Shown: positions 10,861-15,791, counted from the stretch's first letter. The stretch is DNA of 62,353 nt from Flavobacteriales bacterium (GCA_046081565.1 JBJTWF010000148.1:1-62353); one strand, 5' to 3'. Numbers and translations are program-made. The notes: a model not told the origin generated them from the letters alone.

Positions 10861-11679
10861 ATGGTCCTGACAGAAATCCAAACCCTTGCCATAGAAGCCA
10901 TTATGGAGGCCTGCCACGCAGTAATGGAAATATATAGAAACCCCATCCCCTGGGAAGAAAAAAGCGACGGGTCTCCAGTAACGCAAGCTGATCTTGCCTC
11001 ATCATCCATCATTCAAGGTAAATTAAAACAAACCTCTATTCCAATTATCGAGGAAGAATCCCCACATGAAACATATCAAAAGAGGGCGCTTTGGACCCAG
11101 TGTTGGTGCGTAGACCCGTTGGATGGCACCAAAGAATTTATTAAAAAAAACGACGAGTTCTCTATCAACATTGCCCTTTTATCCACCGGTGTTCCTCTTT
11201 TCGGTGTAATTGCAATTCCCGTACAATCGAAATTAGTTTTTGGTGGGCCGGATATAGGGGCTTACGTTGCAACGTTCGACAACCAATCAACCCTGAGTGA
11301 TCCCATACGAATAATCCCTAAGCCAAACCAACAAAAGACCTTCACGATAATCACTTCCCGCAGTCACCGATCTGAAAAAACAGACGTCTACCTCTCCGCA
11401 ATTACTCCCCCCAACGTACCAACGAAAACGCTTTATAGGGGGTCCGCCATCAAGTTTGTCGATTTAGCGCTTGGCCTAGCTCAAATTTATATTAGAGATA
11501 CCCCCACCATGGAATGGGATGTGGCCGCCGGACAGGCTATATTGAGAGGTGTCGGAGGAAACGTGGTGGATATCGATAGTAAAAAAGCGCTTGTTTTCAA
11601 TAAAAAAAGCTTACTAAATCCCGGATTTATTGCAACAACTAATTTATCTTTACTTGGATGGCAAATCGGGGAATTTTAA
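10861..11679 (+). CDS. cysQ: 3'(2'),5'-bisphosphate nucleotidase CysQ / inositol-monophosphatase family
   Basis: IMPase-fold metal-binding motifs EEES, WCVDPLDGTKEF and WDVAAGQAI. 272 aa. Confidence 0.8.
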   Translation: MVLTEIQTLAIEAIMEACHAVMEIYRNPIPWEEKSDGSPVTQADLASSSIIQGKLKQTSIPIIEEESPHETYQKRALWTQCWCVDPLDGTKEFIKKNDEFSINIALLSTGVPLFGVIAIPVQSKLVFGGPDIGAYVATFDNQSTLSDPIRIIPKPNQQKTFTIITSRSHRSEKTDVYLSAITPPNVPTKTLYRGSAIKFVDLALGLAQIYIRDTPTMEWDVAAGQAILRGVGGNVVDIDSKKALVFNKKSLLNPGFIATTNLSLLGWQIGEF

Positions 11680-13118
11680 CGCTAGGCTTCATTTTTTGCT
11701 TTCTTACGTTCATCAATAGCCAAGTTTCCCTTTGGAATACGCGTTTTGGTTCGAGCCCTGAAAAATCTTGGCTTTCCTTTGGTTTTAATCCAGACTCGTC
11801 TGTGGCGTTAATTAACAAGTCCGTCCGTTGGTATGACCGATATCCCCTCCATTATGTAGATTCAGCCGGAGCCTTTATTGCGGTAACGCCTTTGGTAAAC
11901 CTATCCTTAGGCGTAGAAAGCGGAAAGGATACGCTAAGATATCAAAACAGCCGTGGTGTTTTGTTTTTGGCCGGGGGAAAGAATTTACAAATCCATGCTC
12001 TTTTGGTGGAAAATCAAGCCTTATTTGCTTCCTATCAACAAACCTTTGTGCGAGGACACGGCGAATTTTATCCGAACGCTACCGGTTACCTGCAATCTAA
12101 CGGAATGGTGCCCGGGGAGGGTAGAACAAAACCCTATAAAGGAGGGGGGGTCGACTATTTATACTCCCGAGGAGGTTTTCAATGGAGGCCAACGAAGAAG
12201 GTTATGTTTTTTGGTGGAAACCAACAACTTCAAATTGGTTATGGGACTCGTTCCTTGTTTTGGGGGGACCACAACCAAGCCTTTCTGCTTGGCGCGGAAT
12301 ACCACATTACCAATAAACTTAGCTATCTATGTAGCCGTGGACGCCTCTTTGATTTAATTCGAAAGCCCCTTTTTGAAGGTGTTGAACGTTCCTATTATAA
12401 CAAAGGATATTCTTTTCAGGGGTTAGTTTTTAAACAAAAAATTCATGAAGCGTGCTTAGTTTTTCATACCCTGTGGAATGGCGGCACGCTTTCTAAAGAT
12501 AAATCCCTTTCCCCTTGGTTCTGGGCTCCCCTTCCAGGATTTAATTACCTCGAAAAAATGCGGGTGCACCAACCCCAAATCGGTGCCTGTTATAAAATAC
12601 AAATCAATAAAAAATTACAGCTTTACAGCGAAGTATTTACGAGGAATTTTAAAAAAAATACAGCAAGCTTTCAAGTGGGCGGAAACATGTATTACCCCAT
12701 TCACTCCGCTGTTGAGTTTCGCTCCCATTTTTCGTTTATTCACACCGGAACCGCTTTTTATGGAACGGGGGTTGAAGGAGCGTTTTCGCACAACAACCTT
12801 CCCTTGGGATCTATTCTCGGTAATGGCGTTGATGAATTCCAATTGGTAAACCAATACCGTTTCAAACGCCTTTATTTCAATCACATGGTTCAGTACTATA
12901 CCGCAAAACCCTCCCACAACCTCATGTTACTCCCCTCGTTTGCGCTAAACGCAATGGTATTTCACCAAACCTTTGATGTTGGAATCGTAATTAACATCCC
13001 CATACAATTGGTTGTGTTTGGGGGATTAGACCATCGAATTCCGTATAAAAACGAAAGCTCCTTAATTTGGTGGGGGGGAATTAAAACGCACTTATTTCAA
13101 AACCACCATGCATATTAA
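11658..13118 (+). CDS. Secreted outer-membrane beta-barrel-like protein, possibly Wzi/RemB-like (function uncertain)
   Basis: Signal peptide (GFIFCFLTFINSQ). Aromatic- and Gly-rich alternating pattern along its length. Shares the motif block IGYGTRSLFWGD with the next gene. Confidence 0.6.
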   Translation: MANRGILTLGFIFCFLTFINSQVSLWNTRFGSSPEKSWLSFGFNPDSSVALINKSVRWYDRYPLHYVDSAGAFIAVTPLVNLSLGVESGKDTLRYQNSRGVLFLAGGKNLQIHALLVENQALFASYQQTFVRGHGEFYPNATGYLQSNGMVPGEGRTKPYKGGGVDYLYSRGGFQWRPTKKVMFFGGNQQLQIGYGTRSLFWGDHNQAFLLGAEYHITNKLSYLCSRGRLFDLIRKPLFEGVERSYYNKGYSFQGLVFKQKIHEACLVFHTLWNGGTLSKDKSLSPWFWAPLPGFNYLEKMRVHQPQIGACYKIQINKKLQLYSEVFTRNFKKNTASFQVGGNMYYPIHSAVEFRSHFSFIHTGTAFYGTGVEGAFSHNNLPLGSILGNGVDEFQLVNQYRFKRLYFNHMVQYYTAKPSHNLMLLPSFALNAMVFHQTFDVGIVINIPIQLVVFGGLDHRIPYKNESSLIWWGGIKTHLFQNHHAY

Positions 13119-14502
13119 GTCGTTTTTAATTGGGTGTCTCATGCTCCGTGTAATTGGCTTTTCACAGACCACCAGCGGCATGCGAGACTCCCTGTTTCAT
13201 CTCTCCTTAAGCGGTAAATGCATTCCTATTTTTTCATCCGACGCATCAGACGAATTCTTATTAAAAAAGAACTCAAGGAAGTTCATTCCTCTTGTTGATT
13301 TGGCGGGAGTTTACTCAGAAAAGACATCATTTAAATCACATTTGGGAGGTCGCTTTCAGTGGCAGGGGGAATCGCTTAGTTTGTCAATGGGCGCCTTAGG
13401 TGGGATAACCAATAACCAAGGTGCACTAGTTCCCCATTGGTTCGAAAAACCTATTATCAATGAGGTGAAGGCATCTATTATGCCCGCACTTAGGTTGGCA
13501 TATAAACCAAACCCATACGTCTCTGCCCAACTCGGATTTGATCGAACGTTTTATGGAGATGGGTATCGATCTCTTTTTCTATCCGACATTGGAAAACCAT
13601 ACCCCTATGCTTCCATTCGATTTAAGGTAGGTCCCATTTCCTACCAAAACATGGCGGCATACCTTTTTGCCCCAACCTATCTTCATAAATACCAGATAAA
13701 CCACTTCCTCCATTGGAAGATTACCCAAAACCTACAGCTCAACTTCTTTGAAAGCGTGCTGTTCAATAGCGGTGATTCCACAACCAACAGAACCTTCGAT
13801 CCCTATTATTTAAACCCCTTCGTTTTTATACGCCCTCAAGAATATGCCAACGGTTCAAGTGACAACGTGTTGATGGGCATTGGCGCCTCGCTATCGCTTC
13901 GTAAGGCCAAGCTATATAGCCAACTTGTGGTCGATGACTTTCTGATTGCCTCGTTGTCTTCTGGGGGTAATTATTGGGGTAATAAATGGGGTGTTCAATT
14001 GGGATGGAAACACGCAACGTCTAAAAATCATTGGAAAATCATGAGCCGAATTGAGGGCAACCTCGTGCGGCCTTATACCTATGCCCACATAGGAAGTTCA
14101 TTAAATTATACCAACGATAACATGGTATTATCCCACCCTTTGGGTGGAAATTTTTGGGAATTATATGAATCACATATGTTTATAAAGGGTTCTTTATCCT
14201 TTTTAGTTGAGTTATCTGCTGGACAAAAAGGCTATGATTTGGATACCGTTAGTTTTGGAGGAGATGTTTTTGTTCCTTACACTAACCGGCCAAGCGATTA
14301 CGGAGTAACCCTATTACAAGGAAATAAAACCACGTTTATTTCATCAAGAGTGAAGCTTGGATTAGTGGGAAATAAAAACAACAGTATAGAAGGCTTTTTA
14401 GAATTAAACCTTCGTTATTCAAGAACAATAGATAATTCGTTTTTTCAGCTGTTTCCGCTCCTTGGAATAAGAAGTCGGGTTTTCAATGATTATCGTTTTT
14501 AA
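13108..14502 (+). CDS. Paralogue of the preceding outer-membrane beta-barrel-like protein (Wzi/RemB-like, uncertain)
   Basis: Signal peptide (CLMLRVIGFSQ). Motif FYGDGYRSLFLSD parallels IGYGTRSLFWGD of the upstream gene. Ends ...NDYRF, a C-terminal aromatic residue typical of OMPs. 11-nt overlap with the upstream gene. Confidence 0.6.
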   Translation: MHIKSFLIGCLMLRVIGFSQTTSGMRDSLFHLSLSGKCIPIFSSDASDEFLLKKNSRKFIPLVDLAGVYSEKTSFKSHLGGRFQWQGESLSLSMGALGGITNNQGALVPHWFEKPIINEVKASIMPALRLAYKPNPYVSAQLGFDRTFYGDGYRSLFLSDIGKPYPYASIRFKVGPISYQNMAAYLFAPTYLHKYQINHFLHWKITQNLQLNFFESVLFNSGDSTTNRTFDPYYLNPFVFIRPQEYANGSSDNVLMGIGASLSLRKAKLYSQLVVDDFLIASLSSGGNYWGNKWGVQLGWKHATSKNHWKIMSRIEGNLVRPYTYAHIGSSLNYTNDNMVLSHPLGGNFWELYESHMFIKGSLSFLVELSAGQKGYDLDTVSFGGDVFVPYTNRPSDYGVTLLQGNKTTFISSRVKLGLVGNKNNSIEGFLELNLRYSRTIDNSFFQLFPLLGIRSRVFNDYRF

Positions 14503-14507
14503 AAAAA

Positions 14508-14532
14508 CTGGGCAGGTAAATTACCCGCCCAG
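14508..14532. terminator. Bidirectional rho-independent terminator between convergent genes
   Basis: CTGGGCAGG-TAAATTA-CCCGCCCAG hairpin with one internal mismatch. Preceded by A7 on the plus strand, which is a T7 tail for the minus-strand ssb-like operon, and followed by a T-rich stretch. Confidence 0.8.
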
Positions 14533-14540
14533 TTCTCGGT

Positions 14541-14858
14541 TTATAATCCGATAATTTGTCTTAACTCTACTTCGGTAGCACTTCTTTTTTTTCCTTTTTT
14601 ATCCATGAAAGCTCGATGAACGAGACGGCCATGAATGGCTACTTTTTTACCAACCTCCGCATGATTTAAAACAAAAGAAGCCATGTTTCCCCAGGCAAAA
14701 ATCCTGTGCCAATCTAGTCTTGAAGCATATTGGCCATTATTCTTCCGATACATTTTAGGTGTCGTAAGGGTAAACTTGGCGATTTTACTGCCATTGTTTA
14801 AACTTATGGCGATGGGTGATTGGGCAATGCTACCCACCAAGGTTACGTAATTATTCAT
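14541..14858 (-). CDS. Single-OB-fold SSB-like protein, no acidic C-terminal tail (third gene of the triplet)
   Basis: MNNYVTLVGSIAQSP...AKFTL...LDWHRIFAWGNMASFV...VAIHGRLVHR...ATEVEL follows the SSB OB-fold pattern. Ends ...RQIIGL. The ATG at 14858 was chosen over the upstream start at 14933. Confidence 0.8.
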   Translation of the reverse strand: MNNYVTLVGSIAQSPIAISLNNGSKIAKFTLTTPKMYRKNNGQYASRLDWHRIFAWGNMASFVLNHAEVGKKVAIHGRLVHRAFMDKKGKKRSATEVELRQIIGL

Positions 14859-14925
14859 GTTTGATTTATGTTTAGGGGTTTTACTGCTCTTATCCAGGTG
14901 CACTGAACACAAAACCCTCGTCAGT

Positions 14926-15243
14926 TTATACAATTATTAGGTCATTGGCTTCTATTTCCGCTCTTTTTATTAGCCGTCCATTCATATAACGATAACGGTA
15001 TAAAAGCGTCCCTTCCACCGCAAGTTGCATTTCAGGTTGTGCTAATCGCTCCATCAATTGTTTGAACTTTCCCCAAACTAGGATGTCATGTTTTTCCCGT
15101 CTTTCCTTTGGGATTCCTTGCTTGTTTATGTAGATGGATTTTGTAATAAGCTTAAATTGAGCCATGGAGCGTCCATTGGTTGAGGGTTCAGGATAGTCTA
15201 TTAACCCTCCTTCCAATTTTCCGATCAAAGAAACGTGATTCAT
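14926..15243 (-). CDS. Divergent single-OB-fold SSB-like protein, no acidic tail (second gene of the triplet)
   Basis: MNHVSLIGKLEGG...AQFKL...HDILVWGKFKQLMERL...LAVEGTLLYR. This is the most divergent of the three and lacks the Trp preceding the conserved His. Confidence 0.7.
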   Translation of the reverse strand: MNHVSLIGKLEGGLIDYPEPSTNGRSMAQFKLITKSIYINKQGIPKERREKHDILVWGKFKQLMERLAQPEMQLAVEGTLLYRYRYMNGRLIKRAEIEANDLIIV

Positions 15244-15249
15244 CGTTTT

Positions 15250-15600
15250 TTATTTCAACTCCGTATTAACTCGTCCTAATAGCATAAAATCATTGAGTTC
15301 AATCACGGTAGAAAAACGCTTTGTTCCATCAGGGGCTTCGTAATTTTGATAAGCAATTTTACCTTCTAGTAAAATTTCTTGACCCTTATTTAATAGCCGC
15401 TCTACTTTTTCCGCCATTTTTCCCCAGGTATTGATAATGTGCCATTGAACTTCTTCCTGCCAATCGCCATTTTTATCTTTGTAGCGATCGTTGGTGGCTA
15501 CTGAAAAACGTGCTAATTTTTTGCCAGAATCAAAGGCAATAATTTCAGGTTGACCTCCAAGTCTTCCCATTAGATTTACTTTATTTTTAAAATGATTCAT
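15250..15600 (-). CDS. Single-OB-fold SSB-like protein, no acidic tail (first gene of the triplet)
   Basis: KVNLMGRLGGQPE...ARFSVATNDRYKDKNGDWQEEVQWHIINTWGKMAEKV...ILLEGKIAYQNYE closely follows the canonical SSB core. Ends ...GRVNTELK with no D/E-rich IPF-type tail. Confidence 0.85.
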   Translation of the reverse strand: MNHFKNKVNLMGRLGGQPEIIAFDSGKKLARFSVATNDRYKDKNGDWQEEVQWHIINTWGKMAEKVERLLNKGQEILLEGKIAYQNYEAPDGTKRFSTVIELNDFMLLGRVNTELK

Positions 15601-15625
15601 TATTTATTTGGATTAATTATACCAT

Positions 15626-15643
15626 CACGGAAACGATTCCGTG
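15626..15643. promoter_or_regulatory. Perfect 7-bp inverted repeat (CACGGAA-ACGA-TTCCGTG) in the leader/promoter region of the ssb-like operon
   Basis: Read directly. Lies 26-43 nt upstream of the first ssb-like start codon, in the divergent intergenic region. Confidence 0.3.
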
Positions 15644-15791
15644 CACTTAACTTTTAAGTCAGTCATGGAACGATCTTCGTTTTTTTTTATTCGGTAGTAA
15701 TCGAATATTATCCATTTGCTTTCGGATAATTCCAAGATAAAAATCCGTTAATGTGTCTAAATCCCCTATTTTTACAAACAAACGCAAGGTT

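Follow-up and report, generated by a model that had tools for sequence, protein, structure and literature searches.

Bacterial single-stranded DNA (ssDNA)-binding proteins (SSBs) are homotetramers whose acidic tails organise genome maintenance, and tail-less SSB derivatives take specialised roles, for example Bacillus SsbB in competence and PriB in the replication-restart primosome. What, then, is to be made of a bacterial operon that encodes three different tail-less SSBs side by side? The question is raised by a DNA stretch of 62,353 nucleotides (nt), hereafter the window (GCA_046081565.1 JBJTWF010000148.1:1-62353), from a freshwater bacterium of the Crocinitomicaceae (Flavobacteriales) that has not been cultured and whose assembled genome comprises 2.07 Mb in 201 contigs and is ~94% complete. 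Its minus strand carries three consecutive SSB genes, here called A, B and C, for which an initial annotation had offered a heteromeric, RPA-like assembly or a PriB-analogous restart factor. We put the probability of some mixed A/B/C assembly, joining at least B with C, at roughly one half. The more demanding version, in which A, B and C would be obligate subunits of one mixed SSB-type tetramer such as A2BC, is put forward tentatively.

Three SSB cores without the acidic tail

The genes, with lengths in amino acids (aa), occupy the following positions in the window:

Gene A: 15250-15600, minus strand; 116-aa tail-less SSB core with a short basic tail, orthologue of a Bacteroidia-wide short SSB
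Gene B: 14926-15243, minus strand; 105-aa tail-less SSB core, fastest-evolving of the three and family-specific
Gene C: 14541-14858, minus strand; 105-aa tail-less SSB core, very basic

As annotated at the outset, A and B are 6 nt and B and C 67 nt apart. The lengths first given for A and B stand, and C has 105 rather than 106 aa when read from the ATG that its orthologues use. Their recognition as three consecutive OB-fold genes of the SSB type was borne out by Pfam, as each exceeds the gathering score of PF00436 (26 bits) with 94.8 bits for A, 30.7 for B and 80.1 for C. Against TIGR00621 (cut-off 53.95 bits), A (108.9 bits) and C (80.8 bits) pass and B (27.8 bits) fails, and pairwise identity among the three is only 28–31%. 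AlphaFold2 modelled the B monomer with a predicted local distance difference test score (pLDDT) of 91.9 and a predicted template-modelling score (pTM) of 0.80. The Foldseek comparison suggested along with the annotation, carried out with this model of B, returned classical SSB cores as the best matches in the PDB (Salinibacter, Coxiella, Klebsiella and E. coli SSB; TM-score 0.76–0.86). By profile, and for B by fold as well, A, B and C thus belong to the SSB family. The canonical tailed SSB, which the annotation had proposed to look for elsewhere in the genome, was located on contig C65 (145 aa, ending ...DDDLPF), and a second, very divergent tailed SSB is encoded on contig C102 (ending ...NEEDF). 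Both were present in every genome sampled.

None of the triplet proteins carries such a tail. In the window A ends in ...LLGRVNTELK, B in ...EANDLIIV (family consensus ...EVEVNDLIIL) and C in ...EVELRQIIGL. The absence of the acidic tip noted initially is therefore confirmed: the disordered linker and the ...DDxPF tip are missing from A, B and C alike, and likewise in ~100 orthologue sets. Without linker and tip, the three proteins should be unable to recruit the SSB partner network, and they are SSB-core paralogues rather than canonical SSBs.

Residues were compared in E. coli SSB numbering. Positions 40, 54, 60 and 88, the ssDNA-stacking aromatics W40, W54, F60 and W88 of E. coli SSB, are occupied in the window by Y/W/W/Y in A, Y/K/W/Y in B and Y/W/W/F in C. 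Within each paralogue family, conservation extends to the aromatic residues at 54, 60 and 88, with Lys54 in the window's own B. At position 40 most copies of A and B have Y, and C shows no conservation. The loss of a Trp reported for the middle gene is thus correct for the window, where B has Lys at E. coli Trp54, and it is limited to the window's sub-lineage, as 15 of 22 B orthologues keep the Trp. His55 is found in A, B and C of the window and in 62 of 66 orthologues. Retention of H55 together with the stacking aromatics suggests that all three proteins very probably bind ssDNA.

Oligomer-interface positions were assigned from knowledge of the E. coli protein; PMC3991886 notes a part of H55, Q76 and Q110 in SSB tetramerisation. 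Residues that set the paralogues apart fall at such interface positions:

Position 7: K in A; H in B; Y, Q or H in C
Position 76: E in A; variable in B; K in C
Position 78: L, A or I in A; A in B; A in C
Position 80: E in A; E in B; H in C, against a near-universal E80

Further residues are private to one paralogue, namely W48 in A (invariant, as is E76 of A), W63 and D108 in B, and N62 and R104 in C. The paralogues also differ in charge: the median net charge is +9 for C, with +12 for the window's copy, compared with +2 to +4 in the other SSB cores.

Descent and distribution of the triplet

A maximum-likelihood tree was calculated from A, B and C of 22 loci together with short and tailed SSBs, the latter including E. 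coli SSB and the canonical and second tailed proteins. All short SSBs split from the tailed ones with a support of 100/99. A, B and C were each monophyletic (99/79, 100/93 and 98/92, respectively), B and C were sisters, and the window's B sat on a long branch. Other Flavobacteriales families possess one short A-like gene, sometimes tandem-duplicated, which encodes 110–117 aa ending in ...LLLGKKxx. In a phylum-level survey A-like genes occurred in many Bacteroidia families and not in other classes. True orthologues of B (E<1e-33) are confined to the Crocinitomicaceae. Judged by tree and survey, A is the family's version of a short paralogue found across the class, and B and C derive from one ancient triplication and are specific to the family. 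The initial description of the three genes as divergent paralogues accordingly holds for B and C, A being an ordinary member of the Bacteroidia-wide short-SSB clade. In pairwise comparisons the ratio of non-synonymous to synonymous substitutions (dN/dS) ranged from 0.01 to 0.13 across the three genes, which indicates purifying selection on each of them. When the window is compared with its nearest relative, dN/dS is 0.010 (A), 0.097 (B) and 0.019 (C), values by which B is accelerated in the window lineage yet still constrained.

Related loci were found in Fluviicola, Lishizhenia and many metagenome-assembled genomes from lakes. Within the GTDB genus of the window, 18 of 24 genomes have the triplet in the order A-B-C, and the same-genus triplets examined share their chromosomal neighbours. 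Identities within the genus amount to 54–70% for A and 47–76% for C and only 30–43% for B; flanking housekeeping genes reach 60–85%. Across the family, three adjacent short SSB genes were present in 16 of 19 well-assembled genomes, corresponding to 11 of 14 other genera, and the remaining three genera carry a doublet. The order A-B-C recurs in 77 of 80 named loci, the other three being broken by contig ends. The genes are thus co-conserved, a point at which the initial annotation had seen its proposal at risk: the triplet is kept as a unit across the whole family. Flanking genes vary from genus to genus and no fourth conserved partner was found in the Crocinitomicaceae, indicating that A-B-C travels as a self-contained unit. 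On the evidence of its phylogeny, the operon is vertically inherited.

Several good-quality genomes lack all three genes and keep both tailed SSBs. Absence of the entire set from several lineages shows that the operon is accessory, and a partial A-B-C set was seen in none of the genomes surveyed. Four triplet-less genomes of the window's genus have the pair of hydratase and flippase genes that lies beside the operon in the window, with no SSB gene next to it; a clean empty site could not be demonstrated in these genomes, the other flank being rearranged. A literature search for tandem or heteromeric bacterial SSBs yielded nothing relevant. The sole published mention that came to light concerns a 102-aa tail-less SSB of Psychroflexus torquis, which was excluded from a biochemical study (PMC3991886). 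A is an orthologue or close relative of such Bacteroidia short SSBs and shares their build of an OB core and a short basic tail. Elsewhere in the class these occur as a single gene or an occasional doublet, the fixed A-B-C arrangement with derived B and C being found only in the Crocinitomicaceae. The operon is thus a previously undescribed, family-wide variant of accessory tail-less SSBs.

Some loci depart from the common layout. Three loci from three genera (L043-L045) have the doublet, A plus one other gene. Two loci of one genus (L028 and L029) combine A with a recent duplicate of A and with a C-like gene whose sister group is B plus C. These variant layouts may preserve intermediate stages of the triplication. 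At about ten other loci (L086, L088, L090, L091, L108-L110, L112, L123 and L125) a gene is inserted between B and C, both of which are intact; it encodes a 120–135-aa '23S rRNA intervening sequence protein' (PF05635, four-helix bundle).

A possible mixed complex and its alternatives

We favour the reading that three SSB-core paralogues have become subfunctionalised in an operon dedicated to them, that they are co-transcribed and that their products would co-assemble into mixed oligomers resembling the SSB tetramer. At least the sisters B and C would pair, and possible particles are A2BC or A4 plus B2C2. A complex of this sort would cover ssDNA and would not draw in those enzymes of repair and replication for which the tail of the canonical SSB is a docking site. 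It would play an accessory part next to the tailed housekeeping SSB, probably under particular conditions, and would protect or store ssDNA. We favour a mixed assembly because three diverged paralogues are co-retained in a fixed order and are tightly coupled, and because paralogue-specific divergence centres on interface positions. In addition, two-OB SSB chains are common in nature, indicating that SSB folds are often brought together in one oligomer after tandem duplication. The favoured reading further draws on the single origin of the three genes, the purifying selection on each, their presence or absence as a whole set and the operon-specific promoter array and leader.

The closest parallel to a mixed particle is the SSB of the Deinococcus-Thermus group (e.g. 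PDB 1se8, 2fxq and 2ihf), in which two diverged SSB-type OB folds, the products of a tandem duplication, act side by side within one four-OB particle. Among solved structures, the best sequence matches of the B profile were SSBs rather than PriB and included these proteins (E ~1e-17). The layout proposed here would mirror the two-OB chain with separate chains. In the Deinococcus-Thermus proteins, however, both folds reside in one chain, the acidic tail is kept and the protein is the housekeeping SSB, whereas the triplet consists of separate genes of three kinds without tails and has a canonical SSB elsewhere in the genome. With the RPA heterotrimer, the triplet has in common that several distinct OB-fold subunits are encoded together, as RPA subunits are in archaea. 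RPA trimerises through C-terminal helices and contains multi-OB and zinc-finger subunits. In contrast, A, B and C are bare single OB cores without such helices, each ending with the last beta-strand of the core, so that the label 'RPA-like' of the initial annotation is weak and any mixed assembly would rather resemble an SSB tetramer.

Two analyses lent no support to a mixed complex. AlphaFold2 was applied to a natural read-through chain of 368 aa, in which A, B and C of locus L077 are joined in one frame by their natural linkers. With an input of 29 correctly registered multi-domain alignment rows, the model reached a mean pLDDT of 62 and a pTM of 0.39, values too low to define the arrangement of the domains and neutral as to assembly. 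No fusion of A-, B- or C-type domains was found among 1.84 billion representative proteins, in which only canonical-type double-OB SSBs occurred. Other observations weigh against a mixed complex. Single-copy A-like SSBs of other families must work as homo-oligomers, so that A may be independent of B and C. There is also no charge complementarity between the proteins, each of which is basic. Hairpins within the operon, often with a T-run and at lineage-dependent positions, suggest that the genes are expressed unequally. Finally, the loss of all three genes or none is weak evidence of interdependence, since one deletion removes adjacent genes together.

Some of these points are shared by an alternative that we consider rather unlikely and still the most serious one: three independent tail-less SSBs, each forming its own homotetramer, with differing substrate preferences or binding modes and co-expressed for the same condition. 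The highly basic C, for instance, might then bind more tightly or bind RNA. The solved bacterial SSB cores that match B are all homo-oligomers, and so must be the single-copy A-like short SSBs of other families. H55 is preserved in every one of the paralogues together with most of the aromatics that bind DNA, and the attenuator-like internal hairpins argue against a fixed equimolar output. Staphylococcus and Streptomyces keep several homotetrameric SSB paralogues. Bacillus subtilis SsbB, Staphylococcus aureus SsbB and SsbC and Streptomyces SsbB resemble the triplet in being accessory paralogues beside an essential tailed SSB. Some of them lack the acidic tail, their roles are in competence or chromosome segregation, and the S. 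aureus SsbB core is a close Foldseek match of B. Unlike A, B and C, they are single genes for homotetramers, belong to other lineages and clades and are under competence or sporulation control; for the triplet no sign of competence control was seen, and the element upstream of it is an operon-specific phased array and not a known competence box. What independent SSBs leave unexplained is the retention of order, of adjacency and of all three copies across a family in which the flanks are reshuffled, as well as the clustering of paralogue-specific substitutions at interface positions 7, 76, 78 and 80.

A PriB-like primosome adaptor, i.e. a set of tail-less OB proteins that bridges PriA and ssDNA in replication restart, appears improbable. 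PriB is itself a tail-less SSB derivative of ~100 aa (PMC8509808), and six Crocinitomicaceae genomes, including that of the window, have PriA and contain no match to the PriB model. This negative result, however, extends to A, B and C, which do not match TIGR04418 in any of the six genomes. PriB was also absent from the PDB search with the B profile and from the top 50 Foldseek matches of B. PriB is a beta- and gamma-proteobacterial homodimer encoded in an rpsF-priB-rpsR operon; the triplet has no rpsF-rpsR context and is not linked to priA. Triplet-less genomes such as G007 keep PriA, and A belongs to a class-wide paralogue clade. The proposal of a PriB-analogous restart factor thus found support neither in the PriB model nor in sequence or fold neighbours, gene context or the triplet-less genome. 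Least probable is a domesticated mobile-element or phage SSB cassette (a conjugative leading region, prophage remnant or anti-defence module), for which six A-like copies in one Bacteroidia genome could be cited and which is contradicted by chromosomal housekeeping flanks conserved within the genus, a gene tree that fits vertical inheritance, the lack of any PADLOC match, PHROGs matches to a generic SSB family only, phage SSBs that are at most 43% identical, and no integrase, relaxase or transfer gene nearby. The view of the initial annotation that the flanks have no phage, conjugative or integrase context is upheld, its reservation that the genes might be remnants of a mobile element does not apply, and a mobile-element origin of the present locus is largely refuted.

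If the obligate mixed tetramer exists, it would be the first natural case of a bacterial SSB that is a hetero-oligomer of separate chains, and it would form a tail-less, 'silent' particle that sequesters ssDNA from repair and replication enzymes. The triplet is a natural experiment in what an SSB does without tails and possibly in the transition from homo- to hetero-oligomer, as in RPA of archaea and eukaryotes. The short tail-less SSB clade of the Bacteroidia has been noticed and never characterised, and the triplet, which is carried by cultured Fluviicola, provides an entry point.

Control elements and neighbouring genes

Three non-coding features of the operon are referred to below:

Control region: 15601-15752, minus strand; common with the divergent enoyl-CoA hydratase gene, contains a decayed AAnCGA array and a palindrome
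Structured B-C spacer: 14859-14925, minus strand; hairpin GAGGGTTTT...AAAACCCC, GC-rich, no T-run
Intrinsic terminator closing the operon: 14508-14532, minus strand; CTGGGCGGGTAAtttACCTGCCCAG followed by T7, found by a terminator scan

At ~80 of 100 loci (L018-L126) the region upstream of A contains six helically phased AAnCGA boxes ~10 bp apart at fixed spacing. The array is followed by a Bacteroidota-type -7 box (CAACTTTGC) and then by GTCGA and a small hairpin. The phased array was not found elsewhere in the genomes searched, which indicates an operon-specific element rather than a regulon box. In the window lineage array and -7 box are decayed, and a private perfect palindrome, CACGGAAtcgtTTCCGTG, lies at 15626-15643. 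With a score of 12.9, the window's copy of the array (15681-15736) lies below the family median of 58, yet no other site in the genome matches better. SOS control was considered as well, as a CGAA-N5-TTCG dyad within the array has the 4-N5-4 layout of Bacteroidota SOS boxes (PMC8565304). It was rejected: the element is unique to the operon, looser matches occur at control level and a position weight matrix scan of the window's own genome yields nothing else.

About 12–40 nt past the -7 box (L021-L126) a leader hairpin occupies a constant position with stems that differ between genera, e.g. TCAGAA/TTCTGA, ATCAAT/ATTGAT and TCCGA/TCGGA. RNAalifold predicted no structure from the leader alignment. 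In an alignment-free test the hairpin was supported by a mean z-score of -1.24 over 33 loci (p ~1e-7). Located at the likely 5′ end of the mRNA, it could be mRNA-stabilising or autoregulatory. Under the obligate-tetramer reading, the operon would have a strong dedicated promoter, a phased upstream array and a stabilising or autoregulatory 5′ hairpin.

Spacing within the operon depends on the lineage. In the window's genus A and B are 3–6 nt apart or overlap, and the structured spacer follows B. This B-C spacer measures 62–66 nt there, with a median hairpin free energy (dG) of -11.8 kcal/mol and stems that vary in sequence among species (GGGATAAG/CTTATCCC, GGATCGATG/CATCGGTCC and others). Most genera instead have the structured spacer after A (median 64.5 nt, dG -16.9 kcal/mol, often with a T-run; e.g. 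L030, L035 and L036) and tightly coupled B and C, the B-C gap being at most 30 nt in 28 of 60 other loci. The A-B spacer hairpin with its T-run looks attenuator-like. An internal structured spacer of this kind suggests that the three genes are co-transcribed with graded expression. The strong terminator annotated at 14508-14532 was confirmed as a stem with a T-run; all 17 same-genus loci, and 67% of the others, have such a T-run hairpin behind C.

The flanks of the operon in the window encode FtsW/RodA, PBP1, a CoA transferase, an enoyl-CoA hydratase and a flippase and are syntenic in relatives. Its immediate neighbours are genes for outer-membrane-like proteins and the enoyl-CoA hydratase. 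The former lie next to each other at 11658-13118 and 13108-14502. Their products are distantly related, have ~470 aa each, begin with N-termini that resemble signal peptides and are similar in sequence to outer-membrane beta-barrels; Pfam gave no match for either. In part of the genus this gene pair is conserved beside the triplet.

In four other Flavobacteriales families a single short SSB gene is divergently paired with a gene for a four-Cys zinc-ribbon protein of 116–132 aa (L165-L168, L170, L176 and L180), which has only weak Pfam matches (DUF2116). The copy in the window's genome lies at C4:9096-9437. In the Crocinitomicaceae the gene is unlinked to the triplet, and in the window's genus it lies 1–3 kb from priA. 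As a functional clue it was rejected on account of this separate location and of its retention in genomes without the triplet.

The second tailed SSB (C102, locus L004 1483-1926) has ~150 aa, reads MATVFETRLIGNIGKDA... and ends in ...DEDDF or ...NEEDF. It sits on a very long branch, and Val or Ile replaces His55. It is kept family-wide in all Crocinitomicaceae sampled, with unrelated genes as neighbours. The canonical ssb (C65, locus L001) lies between a topoisomerase I-like gene and a gene for a CBS/CorC (GldE-like) membrane protein, and the latter overlaps the ssb stop codon.

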